Origin: an uncultured Opitutales bacterium
GTDB taxonomy: Bacteria; Verrucomicrobiota; Verrucomicrobiia; Opitutales; Intestinicryptomonadaceae
NCBI GenBank assembly: GCA_934660865.1
Contig: CAKUIA010000008.1
Span: 1-32,000 of the forward strand
DNA length: 32,000 nucleotides
Direction: 5' to 3'
Positions 701 through 30,979 of the stretch are shown in pieces. A program made the translations under genes and the position numbers. How positions within the stretch are numbered: the first letter of the stretch is position 1; the number at the start of each line of letters is the position of its first letter. Under the pieces are notes generated by a model. The model was not told the origin of the DNA and ran no database searches. It was given only the letters and a program-made list of their open reading frames with translations.

Positions 701-2053
701 CTACTTTCTTTTGCGGTATACCGCCAAACCCACGGCCAATGCGCCGAAGATTGCGGCTATTGTGGAGGGCTCGGGAACGCTGATGGAAATTGTCATCGAA
801 GTTCCGTCTACGGAATAATCCCAGTCGCCCAAATAGGTTTCGCCGTTTATTGTAAGGAACAATGTTTCGCCTTTTACAAAATTGCTTACGCCCGCAATGT
901 TGGCGTCTTTGTCGAACAGCAATGCGTCGAATACGCAATCGTCTAACGCCGCAATGTCGGCTATAAGGTTTATAACAAGAGTAGCGCCGTCTTCAAAAAC
1001 AAGGCCGGAATTGGCGTCTACATTAAACATTGTAGAAGACGCAAGATCGGTATCTATTTGAACGGAAGCGCTGGAGGCAACCGTTAAGGTTTTGCCGTTC
1101 GTGATTTCAAACGCAGCGCCCTGTTCGAGCGTCAGTTTAGCACCGCCGGAAATCGTTGCGTCGCTTTCGGAAATTTTAGCCGAAATTTTTGCACCGTCGC
1201 TAGTTGCAGATTTGTATTTGCGAATCGAAAAACTGTCGTCGGCAGATGCCATCGAAAAGCCCTTTATTACGCCGTCTGCCATTATCGTATTTTTGTAGGT
1301 TGCTCTGTCAAAGTCGGCATTTTCAACATTTGCGCCGCGCAAGTCTACATTGGTCATACTTGCATAGAAGAAATTGGCATCGGAAAGGTCGGCATTCACA
1401 AAGGTTGTATCATTCAATGTAGCCCAACCCAAATTCGCCCCCGACATGCTTTGCCCGTTAAAATCCCAGCCGCTTAAATAGCAGCTGGAAAAGCCTATAG
1501 AGCCCAAATCCTTGTCTTGATAGCTCTTTGTTGATTTCAACTGCTCGTAGGTGAAGCCTGTTACGTTGTTGAAATACGTATCTTTTACAATGGCGTTTGT
1601 AAAGTCGGCGTTTGTAAGTGTCGAATCCACGAACTGAGTGTTCGCCAAATCGGCGCTCGCAAAATTAGTGCCGGCAAATGTCATATCGTGAATGAACGAA
1701 TATTCCAGATTCTGTCCGCTAAAATCCCAGCCGCTAAAATCGTTGTCCGATAAAGTAATGCCTCTGAGGTTCTTGTCTTTATAGCTTTTTGTAGATTTCA
1801 ACTGCTCTTCGGTGAACCCTATTACACCGCTGAAATTCGCGCTTGTTATTGTGGAATCGGTAAAATTAGCTCCCGTAAGCGTCGAGTTCGAGAATTTCGT
1901 ATAATCCAGTTCCGCGTTTGAAAAATTGGTATTTATATACGAGTTGTTCGAGAGGTCTTGTCCCGATAAAATTTGTCCCGAAAAATCTTCGTTATCGGCA
2001 AAAGCCAGCGTTGAAAGGGATATTATCCCCGCAATAGTGAGTATGTTTTTCAT
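701..2053 (-). CDS. Secreted pentapeptide-repeat protein with a C-terminal PEP-CTERM sorting signal
   Basis: I chose the internal ATG at 2051-2053, which gives MKNILTIAGIISLSTLAFA, a signal-peptide-like N-terminus. The body has long runs of A(D/N)LxG/F-type pentapeptide repeats (for example NFSNAELDYTKFSNSTLTGANFTDSTITSANFSG). An internal module (FTxEQLKSTKSYxDKxL...SGWDF) of about 87 aa occurs twice. The C-terminus VPEPSTIAAIFGALAVGLAVYRKRK is a canonical PEP-CTERM motif. Confidence 0.85.
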   Translation of the reverse strand: MKNILTIAGIISLSTLAFADNEDFSGQILSGQDLSNNSYINTNFSNAELDYTKFSNSTLTGANFTDSTITSANFSGVIGFTEEQLKSTKSYKDKNLRGITLSDNDFSGWDFSGQNLEYSFIHDMTFAGTNFASADLANTQFVDSTLTNADFTNAIVKDTYFNNVTGFTYEQLKSTKSYQDKDLGSIGFSSCYLSGWDFNGQSMSGANLGWATLNDTTFVNADLSDANFFYASMTNVDLRGANVENADFDRATYKNTIMADGVIKGFSMASADDSFSIRKYKSATSDGAKISAKISESDATISGGAKLTLEQGAAFEITNGKTLTVASSASVQIDTDLASSTMFNVDANSGLVFEDGATLVINLIADIAALDDCVFDALLFDKDANIAGVSNFVKGETLFLTINGETYLGDWDYSVDGTSMTISISVPEPSTIAAIFGALAVGLAVYRKRK

Positions 2054-2340
2054 ATAGTTAGATTGTATATTTTTTAACGGCCAGCATGGGCATTTAAAAA
2101 CTTCTCTGCAAAAATGGCATTTCGCCTTAACAGCCAAGACATTTTGCGAATACAGAAAATGGCGGCAACCAACCGTTGGAATTTATCCGCATTGTTATTT
2201 CATTTTTGAACACTCCAGTCAAGAAAATTGCGAATGGCAAACTATTTCAATTCCGATTTAAAGCGAATAAAAACAATATCCTGCAAACGCCTAACATACA
2301 CTTACCCCGCAAAAAAACTTAACATCGACGCAAATAATAA

Positions 2341-2373
2341 ATAAAAAAGCCTTTTTAGAAACTAAAAAGGCTT
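2341..2373 (-). terminator. Intrinsic terminator downstream of the second PEP-CTERM pentapeptide-repeat gene
   Basis: 12-bp stem AAGCCTTTTTAG (2347-2358) / CTAAAAAGGCTT (2362-2373) with a 3-nt loop. On the minus strand it is followed by a T-run (complement of the A-run at 2343-2348). It lies 28 nt past the stop. Confidence 0.6.
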
Positions 2374-2400
2374 CGCGTTATATTCTAAAAATTTCCAAAT

Positions 2401-4158
2401 TTATTTACGGCGGCGGTATATAGCCAACCCTAACGCCAATGCGCCGAATATTGCAGCTATTGTTGCAGGTTCTGGAACTTGCGTTGCCAAAATCGAAAAC
2501 TTGTTTTCGTTTATAACGCAGGTCCAATAGCCGTTAAATGTTTCGCCTTTAATTGTTAGGTATAGGATTTCGTCGGGCTTTAGGTCTTTTAGGCTTGCTA
2601 TGTTCGAATCGCTTTCAAACGAAATTAAATCGAACTTATATTCAACATCGGGCAAAAGATCTTCGGTTATGTTAATTGTAAGCTTGCCGTCTATAACCAA
2701 GCCCGCCAAAGATTCTATGTATATTTGTGTCGGGTCGCTTATAGAGGTGTCTATAATAAGCACGCCGTTTTCTGCTATAGTAAGCGTCTTTTTATTTACT
2801 ACATCTAGGCGTGCCCCTGTATCTAACTTAAGGGTTGCCCCGCCAGAAACCGTTGCATCGCTTTCCGAAATTTTAGCACTTATCATTTCTCCGCCGCTTG
2901 TAGCAGGCGTATATTTGCGAATGGTAAGGCTGTCGGCAGCAGACGCCATAGAGAAGTTTTTAATAACGCCGTCTGCCATAATGGTGTTTTTGTAGATAGC
3001 AGCACCACTTGTAGCTGTAGTTTCAGCACCTCTTAAATCTGAATTAGTGAAATTTACATTTGTAATTCTTGTTGCAAAGAAACTTGCATTTTGAAGATTT
3101 TGGTTTGATAAATCCCATTTTGAAATATTGTTGTAATCGAACATTACCCCTGTAAGATTTCCTTCTTTGTAAGAAGCTGTAGATTTTAATTGAGCCTCGG
3201 TAAATCCATTAGCTACAGTTGAGGACAAATCTGCACCCTGAATTATCGCATTTGTAAAATCTGCACCATTAGTTGATGTACCAGAAAGCACTGCTCTAGT
3301 AAAGTTTGCACCAGACAAATTTGCTTTATCCAAGGTAGCATCGGTTAAATCTGCATTTGTAAAATCTGCATCTTCTGCGTTTGCACCATATAAATTTGCT
3401 CCTGACATATTTAACCCAGATAAATTGAATTTACTTATATTATCTATGAAAATTTTTGTGATATCAGATGCAGAACGTAATTGTGTGTCTGTTAAATTCT
3501 CTACTCCCTTTAACCATGCTCCTGATAGGTTTGCGTTTGTAAAATCTGCATCTTGCACATTTGCACCAGATAACCATGCTCTTGATAGATTTGCGTTTGT
3601 AAAATCTGCATCTTCTGCGTTTGATAAACTTGCTCCTGACATATTTAACCCAGATAAATTGAATTTACTTATATTATCTATGGAAATTTTTGTGATATCA
3701 GATGCAGAACGTAATTGTGTGTCTGTTAAATTCTCTACTCCCTTTAACCATGCTCCTGATAGGTTTGCGTTTGTAAAATCTGCATCTTGTACATTTGCAC
3801 CATATAAATTTGCTCCTGATAGGTTTGCATTTGTAAAATCTGCATCTTCTGCGTTTGCATCAGATAACCATGCTCCTGATAGGTTTGCATTTGCAAAAAT
3901 TGCTCCTGATAGGTTTGCACTCGAAAAATATGCTTCAGATAGGATCGCATTTGTAAAATTCGAAAACGCATAAGATGCTTCTGACCCATTATCTTCACTA
4001 AAAGTTGTTCCTTTTGCCGTAACACCTATCCAACTTGAATTTCTATGAGATATCCCAGAAAAGTCCTTTCCAGACACGTCTTGCCCATCGTAATTTTCAT
4101 AGTCGCCAAAGGCAAAGCCTGCCGCGAATATTGACAATATTGTTATATACTTTTTCAT
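2401..4158 (-). CDS. Secreted pentapeptide-repeat protein with a C-terminal PEP-CTERM sorting signal (paralog of 701-2053)
   Basis: The N-terminus MKKYITILSIFAAGFAFG looks like a signal peptide. The repeats are very regular (ANLSGAWLSDANAEDADFTNANLSGANLYGANVQDADFTNANLSGAWL). The C-terminal third (YKNTIMADGVIKNFSMASAADSLTIRKY...ISAKISESDATVSGGATLKL) matches the first paralog. The protein ends VPEPATIAAIFGALALGLAIYRRRK. Confidence 0.9.
   Translation of the reverse strand: MKKYITILSIFAAGFAFGDYENYDGQDVSGKDFSGISHRNSSWIGVTAKGTTFSEDNGSEASYAFSNFTNAILSEAYFSSANLSGAIFANANLSGAWLSDANAEDADFTNANLSGANLYGANVQDADFTNANLSGAWLKGVENLTDTQLRSASDITKISIDNISKFNLSGLNMSGASLSNAEDADFTNANLSRAWLSGANVQDADFTNANLSGAWLKGVENLTDTQLRSASDITKIFIDNISKFNLSGLNMSGANLYGANAEDADFTNADLTDATLDKANLSGANFTRAVLSGTSTNGADFTNAIIQGADLSSTVANGFTEAQLKSTASYKEGNLTGVMFDYNNISKWDLSNQNLQNASFFATRITNVNFTNSDLRGAETTATSGAAIYKNTIMADGVIKNFSMASAADSLTIRKYTPATSGGEMISAKISESDATVSGGATLKLDTGARLDVVNKKTLTIAENGVLIIDTSISDPTQIYIESLAGLVIDGKLTINITEDLLPDVEYKFDLISFESDSNIASLKDLKPDEILYLTIKGETFNGYWTCVINENKFSILATQVPEPATIAAIFGALALGLAIYRRRK
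3361..3868. repeat. In-frame tandem duplication (period 234 bp = 78 aa) inside the pentapeptide-repeat CDS
   Basis: CCTGACATATTTAACCCAGATAAATTGAATTTACTTATATTATCTATG starts at 3401 and again at 3635. About the first 165 bp of the two copies differ at only 2 positions that I could see, after which they diverge. In the protein, the block NLSGAWLKGVENLTDTQLRSASDITKI(S/F)IDNISKFNLSGLNMSGA occurs twice. Confidence 0.85.
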
Positions 4159-4162
4159 AACT

Positions 4163-4549
4163 TTAGTATCCTAGATATTTGAAAATTGAAGGAAGAAGTG
4201 GGTCTAGATGAATATTAAATGGGCCTTTCCAAGTAGCTCCATTAGATTGAGTATAGTTTGAAACCGAATATTCGCTAGTATTCCCAGATTTTGTAAATTG
4301 CCCGTGTAATGAATTAAAATATGTCGCTATTTGAACATACTCTTTTTGGCGAACAACAAATGATGTATGCCCTGGAGCGAGATATAAAATTTCAATCTCT
4401 CCATTTGTTTTGTCCAACGACAAAATATTGCAACCGGCACCGCCTTTGTTTCCCATCGATGGAATATGCAATGGCAGTTTATTGCCAGTTAAAACTAGTT
4501 GCGAAACGATATCGTTTATGCAAACGGATATATTTAATGGTGCTGACAT
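4163..4549 (-). CDS. Hypothetical protein (128 aa from the ATG at 4549; the ORF extends to 4618)
   Basis: The ORF stops 4 nt upstream of the pentapeptide-repeat gene start on the same strand, so co-transcription is likely. It is low in GC. I recognise no family. The start is uncertain: MSAPLNIS at 4549, or MHKFCS at 4618, which would place the left dyad site inside the coding sequence. Confidence 0.45.
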   Translation of the reverse strand: MSAPLNISVCINDIVSQLVLTGNKLPLHIPSMGNKGGAGCNILSLDKTNGEIEILYLAPGHTSFVVRQKEYVQIATYFNSLHGQFTKSGNTSEYSVSNYTQSNGATWKGPFNIHLDPLLPSIFKYLGY

Positions 4550-4579
4550 AACTCTTTCAAAGAAATTATGTACAGGTAT

Positions 4580-4598
4580 ATGGTATTTAGAATACCAT
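4580..4598. repeat. 19-bp dyad site ATGGTATT-TAG-AATACCAT (left copy)
   Basis: 8-bp perfect inverted arms around a 3-nt asymmetric core. It is the exact reverse complement of the site at 4747-4765. Confidence 0.8.
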
Positions 4599-4746
4599 AT
4601 GCTGCAAAATTTATGCAATATTCTGATTATCAGAGAAAAATATTTATTTGGATATTGATTCTTTTAAAGTCTATCTTTGAAATAGAAATCCTGGAATTGT
4701 CAACAAACCAAACAGTACAAAAGTTCTTTGGCTTTTGTTGTTGACA

Positions 4747-4765
4747 ATGGTATTCTAAATACCAT
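4747..4765. repeat. 19-bp dyad site ATGGTATT-CTA-AATACCAT (right copy, inverted relative to the left copy)
   Basis: The arms match 4580-4598 and the core is reverse-complemented. The site overlaps the ATG (4764) of the recombinase gene. It abuts an 11-bp inverted repeat, ATTGTCAACAA (4696-4706) / TTGTTGACAAT (4738-4748). Confidence 0.8.
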
Positions 4766-5762
4766 GAACAAAGAATTGATATCGGCGAGGGCTCTTTTAA
4801 AAGGCAAAAATATTAGCGTTTTAGACGCAGCTAGGCTTATTTGCAATATTGTAGATTTTATGCCAAAAAAATCCAAACTTACTACCCTTCAGTTTTGCGC
4901 CAAAGTAATTGAAATTGGCAAAAATAACTTTAGGCAAAACGAAATGCCTATCGCCAAAGGTTTTGATATTTATTTGCAGACTAAGCAAGATTTGCGCAAA
5001 GCTTCGTTTAGCGACATTAAATACTTGGGCAACAAGTTGATGAAATTTAAACCCGAATTTGCAAAGCGCAATTTTTCGGAGCTTAGTGTATCTGAATGCG
5101 AAGAGTGGCTAAGCTGCGCGTTTAGCACCCCAAGCCAATACAACAAAGGGCGCGCTATGTTGCACGGGTTGTTTGAATTTGCAATTCGCCGCGAGTGGTG
5201 CGACAAAAATCCCATTAAGCAAATTTTAAGAAAAAAGGTAATAGAAAAGGAAATTTTGCCGCTAAAGCTATTTGAAATTAAAAAGATTATAGCCAATGCA
5301 AAAAAGGAGAACAACGGCATATATTTGCCTGCCGTAGCCCTTTTGGTCTTTGCGGGGATAAGGCCAAGAGAAGTTAGGCGTTTAACTTGGCAAGATATTG
5401 ATTTGCAGGAAAACACAATAACGGTGCGCTCGCTGTGTTCCAAAACAGGCGGGGTGCGCCAAGTAGAAATTATGCCGCAACTAAAGCGAATTTTGCTAAG
5501 CTATAACCCTAAACCCCAGCAAAAAATATGCCCTGTAAACTGGCAGCGCCGTTGGCAAAAAATACGCAACAACGCAGGCTTTGGCGGCTGCTGGGTGCAA
5601 GACGTTTTGCGCCACACCTACGCCAGCTTTTTTGCCAAACGCTTTAAAGACCTGCCGAGGCTGCAGCTAAATATGGGACACAGGAACCAAATGCTTTTAA
5701 AAAGCCGCTACATAAATATGCGCAACATCTCGCGCTTTGAAGCCGAAAAGTTTTTTAACTAG
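4764..5762 (+). CDS. Tyrosine recombinase / phage-integrase family protein
   Basis: The C-terminal catalytic domain carries AGIRPREVRRLTWQDIDL (Arg I), VLRHTYAS (Arg II region) and MGH...SRYINM (His and the Tyr nucleophile). The start is either ATG at 4764 (MNKELIS) or the upstream TTG at 4728. Confidence 0.85.
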   Translation: MNKELISARALLKGKNISVLDAARLICNIVDFMPKKSKLTTLQFCAKVIEIGKNNFRQNEMPIAKGFDIYLQTKQDLRKASFSDIKYLGNKLMKFKPEFAKRNFSELSVSECEEWLSCAFSTPSQYNKGRAMLHGLFEFAIRREWCDKNPIKQILRKKVIEKEILPLKLFEIKKIIANAKKENNGIYLPAVALLVFAGIRPREVRRLTWQDIDLQENTITVRSLCSKTGGVRQVEIMPQLKRILLSYNPKPQQKICPVNWQRRWQKIRNNAGFGGCWVQDVLRHTYASFFAKRFKDLPRLQLNMGHRNQMLLKSRYINMRNISRFEAEKFFN

Positions 5763-26629: not shown

Positions 26630-26815
26630 TACTATGCGCCCAATGCAAAAAAACTTTGGGCGAAGTTTTTAACGCAAACGGAAGTCCCGTTAAATTCGGG
26701 CGCGGTCCCGCCGCTGTAATTTTCCGACACGTCTTTTACGCCACTGCAAACACGGGAAGGCAAAAGACGGTTTTCGCCAAACGAAATGGGAAATAGCCAG
26801 AAGACGCGCGTTAAA
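26630..26815 (+). promoter_or_regulatory. Cobalamin (adenosylcobalamin / B12) riboswitch
   Basis: Three conserved blocks appear in the correct order. The first is GGAAGTCCCGTTAAATTCGGGCGCGGTCCCGCCGCTGTAA (26680-26719), comparable to E. coli btuB GGGAAUCCAGUGCGAAUCUGG...GCAGCGGUAAGG. The second is GCCACTG...GGGAAGGC (26740-26761). The third is a B12-box-like AGCCAGAAGACGCGCG (26795-26810). Supporting helices are GGCGAA (26659-26664) / TTCGCC (26773-26778) and CGTCTTTT / AAAAGACG around the GCCACTG block. A BtuB-like receptor operon lies downstream. Confidence 0.85.
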
Positions 26816-27006
26816 AATGTCCTAACTTCCCGAGAGAGGAACTACTATGCGCGGCCGTGCAAATAGGCGGTTGCGCACGGACAAAATTATAGCGCACGCG
26901 CTTTTTTGTAAAATGCAAAAGCTTGTGCGCCGCGTTTTGTTGCGCCTTTTTCGGGAAGTCGGGGTTATCTACCGCTTCGATGCAAACCGGAAAGATAAAG
27001 CAACAA

Positions 27007-27855
27007 ATGAAAAACAAACTACTATCTACTGCGGCGGTTTTAACCGCCTTAACACTAACCGCACAAGGCCTTAGTGCCGATGTGTTCGATTTTTCGGGGG
27101 CAACTCCCGTATACGACGCCAACCGCTCGACAACGGCAACAGGCAGCGGCGTACATTATTACGAAGACTATATGTACAACCCGCAAGTCGGCTTTAATTG
27201 GAGCAACAGCCTATACAACGAAGACTGGTACTATTCGTGGGACGGCATAAACGTGTCGAACTGCGCCGACAAAACCGTAGACATTTCAAGATACTGGGAA
27301 GCCGGACAACTCGGGCAATACACTTCCGTTACCGGTACCGACGGCAGCGGCGTAGCCGGCGGCTACTACGGCATTTACTACGGAAACACCTCGGCAAATT
27401 CGGGCTACTCAAGCTCCGACATGGGCCAAATCCTCTTTTCGGATTTGATAAGCGTAAGCTCAATTCAAATTGCAAACACCCTAATTAGCTACGACTATCT
27501 AACAAAAACCCTTACCGACGACGGCGAATACCATTCGTTTAAAGTGCTAATCTATGCAATAAATTCGATGGGCGAATTTTCCGAAAACTTTGTAGAATGC
27601 GAGCTTTCGAACGCCGATACGGTTACAAACAGCTGGATAGACGTAGACCTTTCCTCCCTAAACGAAGCCGACGGCATTTACGGGCTTTACTTTAAAACCC
27701 TTACCGACGACTACGGCGAATGGGGGGCAAACGCACCCTCGTATTTTGCGATGGATAACCTCTCATACTCTTCGGCAGTTCCCGAACCTTCGACATACGC
27801 CGCAATATTCGGCGCATTGGCATTGGCGTTGGCTATATACCGCAGGCGCAAATAG
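27007..27855 (+). CDS. Secreted PEP-CTERM protein of unknown function, first gene of the B12-riboswitch operon (candidate corrinoid-binding surface protein)
   Basis: The ATG at 27007 gives the signal peptide MKNKLLSTAAVLTALTLTAQGLSA. The body is rich in aromatic residues, Gly and Ser. The C-terminus VPEPSTYAAIFGALALALAIYRRRK is a PEP-CTERM motif. The stop lies 11 nt before the receptor start. Confidence 0.75.
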   Translation: MKNKLLSTAAVLTALTLTAQGLSADVFDFSGATPVYDANRSTTATGSGVHYYEDYMYNPQVGFNWSNSLYNEDWYYSWDGINVSNCADKTVDISRYWEAGQLGQYTSVTGTDGSGVAGGYYGIYYGNTSANSGYSSSDMGQILFSDLISVSSIQIANTLISYDYLTKTLTDDGEYHSFKVLIYAINSMGEFSENFVECELSNADTVTNSWIDVDLSSLNEADGIYGLYFKTLTDDYGEWGANAPSYFAMDNLSYSSAVPEPSTYAAIFGALALALAIYRRRK

Positions 27856-27866
27856 GGTCAAATTAA

Positions 27867-29951
27867 ATGAAAACGGTGTCTAAACTTCCGCATTTTTTTG
27901 CGGCTTTTGCACTTTTTTGTTCGCACAATGCAATTTCGGCACAGGAGCAAAACGGGGTAAACGAAGCCCAATATGCGGGAGCTTTAGACACTATATACGC
28001 TACGGCCTACAGGTTTTCGGCGCCCAATTTATACACGCCCGCTAACACGGTGCAAATTTCGTCCGAAAAGCTGGAAAACTCGCAATATACAAACGTTGCC
28101 GACGCCCTTAAAAATTTCGCAAACTTAAATTTTATGAGCGTAACGTCGTCTATGGCGGCGGGCAACTTTGCAATGCGCGGCTTCGGCGAAAATTCGCAGA
28201 CAAGAATAATGGTTGTAGTAGACAACCACAGAATAAACCGCCCCGATATGGGGACTATAAATTGGCTGCAAATACCCCTTAGCTGCGTCGAAAGCATGGA
28301 GGTGCTAAGAGGCTCGCAAACGGCGCTGTACGGCTCGGCGGCCTCGGCGGGCGTTATAAAAATAAAGACAAAGCGCCCCAAGGAAAACTCGTATGTATTT
28401 AAAGGCCTATACGGCTCGTACCAAACCTACGATTTGGCGGCACAAGCTTCACTTGTAGAGGGCAACTTTTTTGCAAACGTAGGCATAAACTATTTTAATT
28501 CGGCGGGCTGGCGCGACAACTCGGCAAGCGACGCTGCAAGCGCAAACCTAAGCCTTGGCTACGACATAAACGAAAACAACTCGCTTGTTTTTTCGGGCAA
28601 CTATACCGATTCAAACACAAAGTATGCGGGGCCGCTGAGCTTGGCGCAATACAAGACAGACCCCCAGCAGAGCTTCTACAACTCGAAATCCTATTCAAGA
28701 GACGGCTCGTATAGCCTAAGCTTGGACACACAGTCGGCAGTAGGCGAAGGCGATGTCGGGCTTGGCTGGAATTTTAGGGACATATTTTGGGATATGGGCG
28801 GCAAGACGAAAAATTTTCAGTACACCGCGTCTTTTACGCCGAAATACAAATTCGAAACTTCCGAAAACACCCACATTCTTGTGGGTTTCGACGGCGAATA
28901 CAGCAATATAGACTTTAAGCGCCTGCACGACGGCTCCGCCCCCTACAAGGGCTATGCCGACGCTTCGCAAATTTCGGCCGAACCCTACATAGGCGGCGAC
29001 TGCACGCTGTTCGAAAAACTCGTTTTAAACGCAGTAGGCCGCATAAGCTTTTCGCGCCTTAGCGTAGACAACACCGAATTCAAGCAAAATTCGCTGGACG
29101 AATTTAGGGAAATTTCGGTGCGCGGCACTACCATTTTAGTTCCCAACCCCGACTGGCCGCCGCAGATAAACCCCGCAAATACCTACAAAGAACACGTTTC
29201 GTTTACGGGCCTGGGTGCAAATTTCGGCGCAACATACAAGGTGGAAAACAACACCGCCTTGTTTTTTAAGTTCGACCAAATTTACCACTACCCCGTTGCC
29301 GACGAAGTTTGCTCGTACCAAACCTACGGCGGCTTGAACGTGCCCTTTAACAAAGACATTTCGCCCGAAAAGGGGCAAAACTACGAAGTGGGCGCAAAAT
29401 TCGAAAACGAAAACTGGTCTTTTACGGGCAGCTTCTTTTTAAATATGCTTGTCGACGAAATTTCGTACTACCAAACGCTTACGCCCGGCGGGCTTGAATG
29501 GCTAAACACGAACCTAGACCCCACAATGCGCTTTGGCACCGATATTTCGCTTGAATACGACGCAAAAATTTGGGGATTTAGCGCGATGTTTTCGGCGGTA
29601 AAAGCGCAGTTTTTAGAGGGCGACAACAAAGACAACGAAATACCGCTTGTCCCCAATTTTTCGGGCACGCTGTCGGCCTTTATACGCCCGATTGAACCGC
29701 TTACTTTAACATGCTCGGCCACCTTTTTAAGCGACCAATATGTGGGCAGCGACTACGAAAACAAAGTCTCTAAAATACCCGCATACGCGCTTTTGTCGCT
29801 TAGGGCAAACTACAAAATCTGCGAATATGCAAGCTGCTTTGTAGCAGTCGACAACCTGCTCGACAAACGCTACATTTCGTGCGCGTGGAAATCGGGCTAC
29901 TACCCCGGAGTTGGCCGGACTTTCAGCGCGGGCATAACTTTAACGTACTAA
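27867..29951 (+). CDS. btuB: TonB-dependent outer-membrane receptor, BtuB-like (cobalamin/corrinoid)
   Basis: A signal peptide is present. The plug domain is recognisable (VQISSEKLENSQYTNVADALK...MRGFG...VVVDNHRINRPDMGTINWLQIPLSCVESMEVLRGSQTALYGSAASAGVIKIKTK). The C-terminal barrel ends GRTFSAGITLTY. Substrate is inferred from the upstream cobalamin riboswitch. Confidence 0.85.
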   Translation: MKTVSKLPHFFAAFALFCSHNAISAQEQNGVNEAQYAGALDTIYATAYRFSAPNLYTPANTVQISSEKLENSQYTNVADALKNFANLNFMSVTSSMAAGNFAMRGFGENSQTRIMVVVDNHRINRPDMGTINWLQIPLSCVESMEVLRGSQTALYGSAASAGVIKIKTKRPKENSYVFKGLYGSYQTYDLAAQASLVEGNFFANVGINYFNSAGWRDNSASDAASANLSLGYDINENNSLVFSGNYTDSNTKYAGPLSLAQYKTDPQQSFYNSKSYSRDGSYSLSLDTQSAVGEGDVGLGWNFRDIFWDMGGKTKNFQYTASFTPKYKFETSENTHILVGFDGEYSNIDFKRLHDGSAPYKGYADASQISAEPYIGGDCTLFEKLVLNAVGRISFSRLSVDNTEFKQNSLDEFREISVRGTTILVPNPDWPPQINPANTYKEHVSFTGLGANFGATYKVENNTALFFKFDQIYHYPVADEVCSYQTYGGLNVPFNKDISPEKGQNYEVGAKFENENWSFTGSFFLNMLVDEISYYQTLTPGGLEWLNTNLDPTMRFGTDISLEYDAKIWGFSAMFSAVKAQFLEGDNKDNEIPLVPNFSGTLSAFIRPIEPLTLTCSATFLSDQYVGSDYENKVSKIPAYALLSLRANYKICEYASCFVAVDNLLDKRYISCAWKSGYYPGVGRTFSAGITLTY

Positions 29952-29956
29952 ATAAA

Positions 29957-30979
29957 ATGAAATCTAAAATAATTTCCAACGCTCTTTTAATTTCGGCGGC
30001 AACATTCCAGCCGCTATGCGCACAAAGTTTGGGCATAGACTGCTTTTTACCGTCAAACGAATACTATTCGTACGACTCGAACTACGGCTACATTACGGGC
30101 TTTGCCCCCGGCATAGGCGACGACAACAACGCCGGCATTCACGTTAGCGGCAAGGTTTGGACAACTTCTGGCATGAAGCCGAAATACACCTTTAAAGGCT
30201 GGGCTACAAAATGCGTTTCGTACGTTCAAGGCAGCGGCATTACCGGCAGCGAAACCGACTACGATGCCAGCTATTGGACCGACACTAAAAAGGCGCTCGG
30301 CAAGGCAACTTCAAGCGACACTTCCGACGTTCTTGTTTTAGGCGACGGCGGCTCTATAATTTTGGGCTTCGACAGAGCCATACGCAATGGCGCAGGCTAC
30401 GACTTTTGCGTGTTCGAAAACGCCCTAAACGACACATTTTTGGAGTTGGCCTTTGTAGAAGTTTCTACCGACGGCAGCCACTTTGTAAGGTTTCCCAATT
30501 TCTATTTGGGCACAAAGCCCGTAGGCTCCGACGGCGACGTCGGCGGCGGCGTAAACGACCCTACGTTGATATACAATTTAGGCTCGAAATACAGAATAGG
30601 CTACGGCTCGGGCTACGACCTGCAGGAATTGGCCGACGTTTACAGCTATATATTGGACCACTACGATTTCGATACTAAAACCGCAAAGTCTAGCAGTATG
30701 TTTTCGACCGAATATATGCGCGACTTTCTAAACAACTACAATTATCTTGATTTGGACAACGTAAACTACGTTAGAATTGCCGATATTGTAGGCGACGGCA
30801 AAACTTTGGACAGCGGCGGCAACCCCATTTACGACGCGTATCCAACTTCGGGCACGCCTGGCTTCGACCTAAGCGGGGTCGGCGTTTTAAACGAGGTTCC
30901 CGAAGCCGCCCAATGCGCCTTTATTGCCGCGCTTTCGGCGTTTGCATTCGCGCTTTTGCGCAAAAGAAAAAGGGCTTAG
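29957..30979 (+). CDS. Secreted protein of unknown function with a variant PEP-CTERM-like tail, third gene of the B12-riboswitch operon
   Basis: The ATG at 29957, 5 nt after the receptor stop, gives the signal peptide MKSKIISNALLISAATFQPLCAQS. The core block is GDGGSIILGFDRAIRNGAGYDFCVFENALNDTFLELAFVEVSTDGSHFVRFP. The C-terminus VPEAAQCAFIAALSAFAFALLRKRKRA has VPEA instead of VPEP, then a helix and a basic tail. Confidence 0.7.
   Translation: MKSKIISNALLISAATFQPLCAQSLGIDCFLPSNEYYSYDSNYGYITGFAPGIGDDNNAGIHVSGKVWTTSGMKPKYTFKGWATKCVSYVQGSGITGSETDYDASYWTDTKKALGKATSSDTSDVLVLGDGGSIILGFDRAIRNGAGYDFCVFENALNDTFLELAFVEVSTDGSHFVRFPNFYLGTKPVGSDGDVGGGVNDPTLIYNLGSKYRIGYGSGYDLQELADVYSYILDHYDFDTKTAKSSSMFSTEYMRDFLNNYNYLDLDNVNYVRIADIVGDGKTLDSGGNPIYDAYPTSGTPGFDLSGVGVLNEVPEAAQCAFIAALSAFAFALLRKRKRA

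Follow-up and report, generated by a model that had tools for sequence, protein, structure and literature searches.

A riboswitch-led operon of an uncultured Opitutales bacterium encodes a DUF4465/BtuJ-family protein, a TonB-dependent transporter and a BtuH-like protein with a predicted role in corrinoid scavenging

The operon and its riboswitch leader

Contig CAKUIA010000008.1 of an uncultured Opitutales bacterium (Verrucomicrobiota) carries, within the 32,000 nucleotides analyzed here (the window), a candidate corrinoid-scavenging operon formed by a cobalamin riboswitch and three plus-strand genes that encode proteins of 282, 694 and 340 amino acids (genes 1, 2 and 3; Table 1). The intergenic gaps are 11 nt between genes 1 and 2 and 5 nt between genes 2 and 3, in exact agreement with the first-pass annotation of this DNA, which was made from the letters alone, and the public contig with this sequence shows the same three gene calls. 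An alternative ATG start for gene 1 is found at position 26980. The next gene, about 120 nt downstream of gene 3, encodes an AMP-binding/acyltransferase protein unrelated to the operon, and therefore the operon comprises three genes. The closest genome, a metagenome-assembled genome (MAG) of the Opitutales (Verrucomicrobiota; locus L003, the prefix L denoting the loci collected in this work), has the same operon, with a gene 3 that is 86% identical; its products are named by NCBI "DUF4465 domain-containing protein", "TonB-dependent receptor" and "hypothetical protein".

The presence of a well-formed B12 riboswitch upstream of the operon, proposed in the first-pass annotation, was confirmed with cmscan. 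The match to RF00174 spans the full model (positions 1 to 189 of 189), includes the B12-box region AGCCAGAAGAC, and is the only one that Rfam gave for the window; L003, L004, L005 and L006, the closest relatives, have a riboswitch at the equivalent position. Between the aptamer and the start codon lie 180 nt that fold into a very stable structure, with a minimum free energy of -62.2 kcal/mol (z = -5.2) that none of 200 shuffled sequences reached. This leader includes a terminator-like hairpin followed by a U-rich tract, and in the leader of L003 a hairpin with a different stem sequence precedes an identical tract, CGUUUUGUUG. The hairpin and the U-tract suggest that the operon is controlled by transcription attenuation, presumably in a ligand-dependent manner. 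Simple consensus scans for terminators and promoters were uninformative, given that the counts were equal to the shuffled expectation.

Table 1. Coordinates of the features of the operon (nucleotide positions refer to the window, residues to the encoded protein)
Feature	Position	Strand	Evidence or remark
Cobalamin riboswitch aptamer (RF00174)	26655..26827	+	cmscan 58.1 bits, gathering score 31.5, E 3.9e-12
Expression platform, strongly structured leader	26828..26960	+	terminator-like hairpin ~26892-26930, then U-rich tract GUUUUGUU ~26934-26941
Gene 1, secreted DUF4465/BtuJ-family protein with PEP-CTERM tail	27007..27855	+	Pfam PF14717, TIGR02595
Gene 1 signal peptide	residues 1-24	+	
Gene 1 DUF4465	residues 73-252, nt 27223-27762	+	PF14717
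Gene 1 PEP-CTERM	residues 257-282, nt 27775-27852	+	TIGR02595
Gene 2, TonB-dependent outer-membrane transporter, presumed corrinoid importer	27867..29951	+	PF07715 75.6 bits, PF00593 87.1 bits
Gene 2 Plug	residues 57-163	+	PF07715
Gene 2 barrel	residues 180-664	+	PF00593
Gene 3, secreted BtuH-like domain protein with degenerate PEP-CTERM-like tail	29957..30979	+	no Pfam family
Gene 3 signal peptide	residues 1-23	+	
Gene 3 conserved domain	~residues 30-312	+	
Gene 3 tail	residues 313-340, nt 30893-30976	+	

The DUF4465 protein and the transporter

The first-pass annotation could not match the product of gene 1 to a characterized family. This view has to be abandoned, given that the protein passes the Pfam model PF14717 with 52 bits against a cutoff of 25, aligned over profile positions 2 to 176 of 176. 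When the AlphaFold2 (AF2) model of gene 1, with a predicted local distance difference test (pLDDT) score of 71.5, was compared with the PDB using Foldseek, the best eight matches were all DUF4465/BtuJ proteins (E 1e-9 to 5e-7; the ninth match had 7e-4), among them 4E9K, 9HMU, 4JQR, 9I2L, 9QPM and 9FCT; the predicted structure has the augmented beta-jellyroll fold of BtuJ1, BtuJ2 and D5EK51. The identity of gene 1 to the solved DUF4465 structures is only 16-18%, and a profile of its family matched each of the six distinct DUF4465 sequences with a structure in the PDB, with E values from 2.5e-18 (9HMU) to 2e-11.

DUF4465 has been described as the BtuJ family, of which BtuJ1 and BtuJ2 of Bacteroides thetaiotaomicron are surface B12 scavengers; B12 binding has been shown for eight divergent members, including the verrucomicrobial protein D5EK51 of Coraliomargarita akajimensis, for which binding was demonstrated biochemically and structurally and the structure of the complex was solved (PMC13398666, 2026). 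The family is broadly distributed, and its genes are often found beside TonB-dependent transporters in B12 transport loci (PMC13398666). In these proteins the HI-loop carries the motif GTPAYF/NTPAY, whose Tyr contacts B12 and is kept in 97% of the homologs (PMC13398666). The corresponding motif of gene 1 is G-A-N-A-P-S-Y-F (NAPSYF), which is conserved in our alignment A2; its Tyr residue, Y246, shows at least 90% conservation in this alignment and aligns with the PSY of 9HMU. From its sequence, gene 1 is a clear member of the DUF4465/BtuJ family, and high-affinity corrinoid binding is predicted for it from the properties of the family. Its signal peptide, MKNKLLSTAAVLTALTLTAQGLSA followed by D, has no lipobox cysteine by inspection.

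Gene 2 had been regarded as encoding a BtuB-like receptor. The Plug and barrel domains detected by Pfam confirm a TonB-dependent receptor, and near its N-terminus we recognized by inspection the TonB-box-like motif DTIYATA, to be compared with DTLVVTA of Escherichia coli BtuB. The identity with BtuB did not hold, given that gene 2 falls far below all the NCBIfam equivalog cutoffs (99.7 versus 599.7 for TIGR01779, TonB-B12, and 72.2 versus 836 for NF007926). In a sequence search of the PDB, YncD and PqqU ranked first, ahead of E. coli BtuB, which is matched in the plug domain only; in the same search the BtuB chains of B. thetaiotaomicron were not matched at E ≤ 1e-5. Since the curated cutoffs are not reached and the BtuB match is confined to the plug, gene 2 was rejected as a member of the BtuB family. 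It is probably a functional equivalent of BtuB, and its role as an importer is argued from the context, i.e. the riboswitch and the neighbouring genes for putative B12 binders.

The YncD and PqqU matches and the failed BtuB models would also agree with the import of a non-corrinoid substrate, such as a chelate of cobalt or another metal or a PQQ-like (pyrroloquinoline quinone-like) cofactor, with a riboswitch that merely couples the expression of the gene to the B12 status of the cell; in fact, genes for cobalt transporters and B12-independent isozymes are likewise under the control of cobalamin riboswitches. We consider this option very unlikely, since gene 2 is placed between a protein of the B12-binding DUF4465 family and a BtuH-like protein, the synteny of the DUF4465, receptor and gene 3 homologs recurs across phyla (see below), and, as mentioned, DUF4465 genes frequently adjoin TonB-dependent transporters (PMC13398666).

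Gene 3 and its family

Gene 3 is annotated as "hypothetical", and it showed no match in Pfam, nor in the PDB in a single-sequence search. A word-indexed search yielded 2,579 homologs that do not have any Pfam domain on the conserved region, and among 1.84 billion proteins the family comprises 3,596 representatives at 50% identity (E ≤ 1e-3); for these approximately 3,600 clusters there is no Pfam or NCBIfam model. The AF2 model of gene 3 (pLDDT 92.6) is a beta-sandwich with helical inserts. Searched with Foldseek, it gave only weak matches of the CBM32/discoidin (F5/8C) type, including AlyQ, and neither 7BIZ nor 8BLW was present among its best 50 matches. A relationship with the beta-propellers of the BtuG or BtuK type was rejected because the model is a beta-sandwich and no match to DUF5074 was obtained.

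The first-pass annotation had found no characterized family for gene 3 either; in this case, a remote relationship with BtuH was revealed by profile comparison and by the reciprocal search. The references were BtuH1 (BT1488), BtuH2 (BT1956; PDB 7BIZ) and the H-domain of BtuG1, or BtuGH (BT1490; 8BLW chain B), and clean sequences of BtuGH and BtuH1 from Bacteroides were taken from a metagenome scan. Among 177,635 PDB sequences, the top profile match of gene 3 was the BtuH domain of BtuG1 (8blw_B); 8BLW has been identified as the BtuG1 structure (PMC10404256). With hhalign, the gene-3 family and the BtuH domain were aligned locally, over a core block, with a probability of 94.9% (E 4.6e-8), and over the whole domain with 79.6% across 195 collinear columns. 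In the opposite direction, a hidden Markov model (HMM) built exclusively from eight Bacteroides BtuH domains was used to search the 3,586 open reading frames (ORFs) of the fetched loci. The 27 matches obtained at E ≤ 0.01 correspond to 25 strong members of the gene-3 family and two intermediates; at E ≤ 10 the model recovered 82 of the 84 ORFs of the family, and gene 3 of the window was matched with E 1.3e-4. Two residues of BtuH2, Asn399 and Glu406, would be equivalent to the invariant residues N155 and E163 of gene 3, according to a spacing-based mapping through the BtuH1 motif NPFsGSsE. Judging from these comparisons, gene 3 and the BtuH domain that binds B12 are remotely homologous, at the level of a superfamily. 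BtuH1 itself does not have a Pfam family, hence neither BtuH nor the gene-3 family is annotated.

The two intermediates (L018:1733-2569 and L024:1307-2470) match the BtuH HMM (3.7e-7 and 5.2e-5, respectively) as well as the gene-3 HMM (4e-8 and 8e-7), and by this measure they link both families; the L018 protein is encoded directly behind a DUF4465 gene. A weak match to NF033170 (E 3e-4, far below the cutoff) was observed for residues 124-186 of gene 3 (window 30326-30514) and was repeated in its homologs; NF033170, the LIC_13355 family of Leptospira lipoproteins, may be a further branch of the gene-3 superfamily. Two other queries were discarded: a 52-aa BtuH fragment returned a single 80-aa fragment protein, from the frameshift-rich contig L083, and a Bacteroidales member of the family, used as a bridge to the PDB, gave only spurious WD40-repeat matches located in its type IX secretion system (T9SS) tail.

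The linkage with B12 genes that the first-pass annotation had pointed out at this locus recurs in other genomes. The neighbourhoods of gene 3 homologs were examined in 80 loci from distinct species of Verrucomicrobiota, Planctomycetota, Beta- and Gammaproteobacteria, Desulfobacterota, Myxococcota, Spirochaetota and Bacteroidota; many of these loci are incomplete, and the counts of neighbours are lower bounds. DUF4465 was present in 49 of the 80 loci, either fused with the gene-3 domain in one ORF or encoded on the same strand no more than 3 kb away, and a related TonB-dependent receptor was found near the gene 3 homolog in 41; one or both of these partners were located within 3 kb on the same strand in 57. 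A riboswitch of the cobalamin class was detected in 41 of the 52 loci scanned with Rfam (approximately 80%), always on the strand of the gene, and loci without an adjoining receptor or DUF4465 gene are among those that carry it. The first-pass annotation had named the lack of such a linkage as a result that would refute its proposal, and on this point the outcome is strongly in favour of it. The gene order DUF4465-receptor-gene 3 is found in Verrucomicrobiota and Desulfobacterota, and the order gene 3-DUF4465-receptor in Proteobacteria.

The association also occurs within single proteins. True fusions of DUF4465 and the gene-3 domain, confirmed with Pfam, are encoded in L033 and L078; in L042 three copies of DUF4465, the gene-3 domain and a dockerin are joined (also confirmed with Pfam), and in L055, from Bacteroidetes, Pfam identifies DUF4430 in a protein that also has the gene-3 domain and ends in a T9SS tail. 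DUF4430 is, we presume, a B12-related domain similar to the C-terminal domain of transcobalamin. In five Bacteroidales proteins (L041:3794-7852, L055:5900-7852, L061:634-3876, L079:5426-7849 and L081:1531-3708), one to five modules of approximately 130-170 aa are followed by a C-terminal gene-3 domain and a T9SS tail; the module is DUF4430 according to Pfam in L055, the others are alike by inspection, and the proteins of L041, L055, L061 and L079 are preceded by a cobalamin riboswitch. Three betaproteobacterial ORFs (L032:6899-8491, L028:3712-5466 and L040:6716-8518) contain the gene-3 domain and then DUF4465 with no stop codon in between. Pfam found an internal PEP-CTERM motif in L032 and L028, and a terminal one as well in L032, while L028 ends at the end of the contig; neighbouring species carry the two domains as two genes. 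These three ORFs could be the result of a recent stop-codon loss, a fusion or an assembly error, and they were not counted as true fusions.

Some loci carry more than one riboswitch. In L015, a deltaproteobacterial MAG, there are two cobalamin riboswitches (1935-2119 and 3228-3429) and a cyclic di-GMP (c-di-GMP) riboswitch of the c-di-GMP-I-GGC class (3538-3615; 63.3 bits versus 59). The second cobalamin riboswitch and the c-di-GMP riboswitch lie in tandem just upstream of the DUF4465 gene, an arrangement that may bring a B12-capture gene under the combined control of B12 and c-di-GMP. Two cobalamin riboswitches are also present in L023 (1-167 and 3973-4167) and in L038 (643-810 and 4372-4572), a layout that resembles the one described for operon 1 of B. 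thetaiotaomicron.

The fold of gene 3 admits another role, that of a carbohydrate- or calcium-binding scaffold of the CBM32/discoidin type that would hold the B12 machinery at the exopolysaccharide layer or at the receptor, and that would not bind corrinoids. The only fold matches are indeed the weak ones to CBM32 and F5/8C proteins, the ligand residues of BtuH2 are partly conserved, and some accessory proteins from the B12 loci of B. thetaiotaomicron, such as BtuK2 and BtuL, are non-binders of B12 (PMC13616437). Nonetheless, the homology to BtuH's B12-binding domain, the repeated fusion to DUF4430 and to DUF4465, whose members bind B12 (PMC13398666), and the frequency of the B12 riboswitch in the scanned loci, even where a receptor or a DUF4465 gene is not adjacent, make the scaffold role unlikely in our view.

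Sorting, proposed function and relation to known systems

The products of genes 1 and 3 had been described in the first-pass annotation as PEP-CTERM proteins. This was correct for gene 1, whose tail, AVPEPSTYAAIFGALALALAIYRRRK, passes TIGR02595 (20.6 bits versus a cutoff of 16) and scores just under the cutoff of PF07589 (20.5 versus 20.7); for gene 3 the wording "PEP-CTERM-like" was a fair one, and its tail, VPEAAQCAFIAALSAFAFALLRKRKRA, a VPEA variant, stays below the model. Among the homologs of gene 3, P0008 (18.5) and P0032 (22.7) pass TIGR02595, P0004 scores 15.6, and P0109, from Methylomonas, passes the VPLPA-CTERM model. A VPEP or IPEP motif, a hydrophobic helix and a cluster of Arg/Lys residues are found in all the full-length close homologs of gene 1 and in nearly all those of gene 3. 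Protein sorting by the PEP-CTERM/exosortase system was reportedly described by Haft and coworkers in 2006. In related organisms many paralogous proteins share a nearly identical PEP-CTERM tail, as is typical where an exosortase system is active.

The crystallized D5EK51 (9HMU chain A) ends in "...GVVPE", a sequence that aligns with AVPEP of gene 1 (window 27775-27786), which suggests that D5EK51 probably belongs to the PEP-CTERM proteins and that its tail was left out of the construct, a point on which PMC13398666 is silent. The members of DUF4465 have been described only as lipoproteins or as proteins with periplasmic targeting signals (PMC13398666); some of those classed as periplasmic may be PEP-CTERM surface proteins. 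In other lineages the gene-3 domain is followed by a T9SS tail (Bacteroidota), by a dockerin or the "Planctomycete extracellular" motif (Planctomycetota), or by an extra beta-domain. The homologs of Desulfobacterota (L044, L053, L054, L062 and L074) do not end in PEP-CTERM, but in a Gly-rich sequence, ...G-G-x-G-G-C-F-[IV]-x-T..., and this Gly- and Cys-rich C-terminus may be a different sorting signal. This variety of lineage-specific tails argues that the gene-3 domain has an extracellular function, with a sorting route particular to each lineage.

We consider it likely that the locus is a three-gene corrinoid-scavenging operon of this Opitutales bacterium, turned off through its riboswitch, in which BtuJ-like and BtuH-like proteins displayed by means of PEP-CTERM-type tails capture corrinoids for TonB-dependent import. 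When enough B12 is available the cobalamin riboswitch would switch the operon off, and when B12 is scarce the unliganded leader would allow read-through, likely by a choice between terminator and antiterminator structures. The products of gene 1 (a DUF4465 jellyroll) and gene 3 would be exported by means of ordinary Sec signal peptides, and their tails, presumably through an exosortase, would sort both to the cell surface or to the exopolysaccharide layer. There, they would capture free corrinoids with high affinity, an activity shown for DUF4465 homologs and predicted for gene 3, and would hand them over to the transporter encoded between them, which would import them into the periplasm. Transport across the inner membrane, by BtuFCD or an equivalent system, would be encoded elsewhere.

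Several observations weigh against this proposal. By sequence, gene 2 is no closer to BtuB than to YncD and PqqU. At the leader hairpin, the consensus scan for terminators gave no site, which makes its assignment as a terminator a weak one. Only two of the five metal- and nucleotide-loop residues of BtuH2 could be mapped with confidence, given that Asp522, Ser582 and Glu584 are not reliably alignable, and corrinoid binding by gene 3 and its family is a prediction drawn from homology, riboswitch linkage and fusions. The tail of gene 3 did not match any PEP-CTERM model at E ≤ 0.1, and Pfam scans of the window and of L001 did not reveal an exosortase gene (EpsH/Xrt). To our knowledge, the final location of PEP-CTERM proteins has not been established in general.

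Part of this evidence would fit a periplasmic role, in which genes 1 and 3 encode corrinoid chaperones that partly replace BtuF and remain tethered to the inner membrane by an uncleaved C-terminal helix (a hydrophobic segment followed by RRRK). An unprocessed PEP-CTERM tail is, topologically, an inner-membrane anchor; no exosortase gene was found in the window, no btuF is present in the operon or in the window, and the DUF4465 members that are not lipoproteins have been classed as having periplasmic targeting signals (PMC13398666). However, BtuJ and BtuH are exposed on the surface of B. thetaiotaomicron (PMC13616437), the gene-3 domains of Bacteroidota carry T9SS tails and those of Planctomycetota the dockerin or the "Planctomycete extracellular" motif, and related organisms have near-identical PEP-CTERM tails on many paralogs, all of which makes the periplasmic role improbable. 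As a functional reading, surface capture followed by TonB-dependent import is well supported.

Regarding the rest of the window, Pfam scans of the other large ORFs did not detect btuFCD, the absence of which had been correctly noted in the first-pass annotation, nor an exosortase or a B12-dependent enzyme; these ORFs encode pentapeptide-repeat proteins, an integrase, a GH2 enzyme, transporters and housekeeping proteins. Two large pentapeptide-repeat proteins are encoded on the minus strand (701-2137 and 2401-4158), adjoining a phage-type integrase on the plus strand (4728-5762); the region 701-5762 could be the remnant of a mobile element and has no relation to the B12 operon.

The broad distribution of DUF4465 and its association with TonB-dependent transporters are already published. 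In the literature that we searched, three aspects appear to be undescribed: a very large BtuH-like family outside Bacteroidota, the linkage of the gene-3 family to riboswitches together with its fusions with DUF4465 and DUF4430, and the PEP-CTERM-type sorting of B12-capture proteins. A wider proposal, for which we see the case as evenly balanced, is that the gene-3 family is an unrecognized cross-phylum corrinoid-binding domain related to BtuH, which together with DUF4465 and a non-canonical transporter would form a minimal relay devoid of BtuG, sorted to the surface by a mechanism specific to each lineage (PEP-CTERM/exosortase, VPLPA-CTERM, T9SS or dockerin). Microbial communities, in the gut as in the environment, are shaped by the competition for B12, and the multi-protein relays that capture this vitamin at the surface are so far understood almost wholly from Bacteroides lipoproteins. 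If the proposal is true, vitamin capture would be a new functional role for exosortase substrates, and it would connect this poorly understood sorting system to the acquisition of micronutrients. The BtuH-like family, which reaches Verrucomicrobiota, Planctomycetota, Proteobacteria, Desulfobacterota, Spirochaetota and Bacteroidota, would also allow thousands of "hypothetical" proteins to be assigned a function that is concrete and can be tested, and a new family model could be built on it. We see the advance as incremental, and not as a new kind of system.

Most of the functions ascribed to PEP-CTERM proteins concern exopolysaccharides and biofilms. The likeness of the operon to the PEP-CTERM system lies in the tail of gene 1, which passes TIGR02595, and in the gene 3 homologs that pass the PEP-CTERM or the VPLPA-CTERM model; a connection of PEP-CTERM with vitamin uptake or cobalamin was not found in the searched literature, where only an unrelated paper on c-di-GMP riboswitches was retrieved. 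With BtuJ1, BtuJ2 and the other DUF4465 proteins of known structure (PDB 9FCT, 9QPM, 9I2L and 9HMU), gene 1 has in common the Pfam match, the predicted jellyroll fold, the HI-loop Tyr and the location in a B12-riboswitch locus, adjoining a TonB-dependent transporter. In contrast, BtuJ1 and BtuJ2 of B. thetaiotaomicron are lipoproteins, and gene 1 has a PEP-CTERM tail instead of a lipobox; lipoprotein anchoring is a feature of the Bacteroides BtuJ members and not of the PF14717 family.

BtuH and gene 3 share several motifs in collinear order: PAxGQ (family consensus), LGxGGxIT..F...I.N..G.DF....N, an acidic block, E...V.VS.D, and L..I.fV.I. The weak CBM32-like signal in fold comparisons is common to both, and both belong to B12-riboswitch loci with a receptor. 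They differ in that BtuH has an insertion of approximately 100 residues that is absent from gene 3, which has its own helical insert, and in that BtuH is a lipoprotein whereas gene 3 ends in a PEP-CTERM-like tail. Furthermore, the gene-3 family extends over many phyla, and BtuH is predominantly found in Bacteroidota (PMC13616437, a 2026 review). As in the BtuB-BtuG systems of Bacteroides and in the case of E. coli BtuB, the transporter is TonB-dependent and led by a riboswitch, and it is co-encoded with putative surface B12 binders; nonetheless, its match to E. coli BtuB covers the plug domain only, far below the equivalog cutoffs, and the operon has no gene for the BtuG (DUF5074) beta-propeller lid. 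The first-pass annotation had envisaged an undescribed, analogous apparatus for corrinoid piracy; a riboswitch-controlled acquisition operon with PEP-CTERM-type rather than lipoprotein sorting is indeed what the evidence supports, but given the membership of gene 1 in the BtuJ family and the homology of gene 3 to BtuH, the system is homologous to the Bacteroides relay and not an independent analogue. As judged from the encoded proteins, it is a divergent, differently anchored and BtuG-less relative of the BtuJ/BtuH/BtuB relay of Bacteroides.

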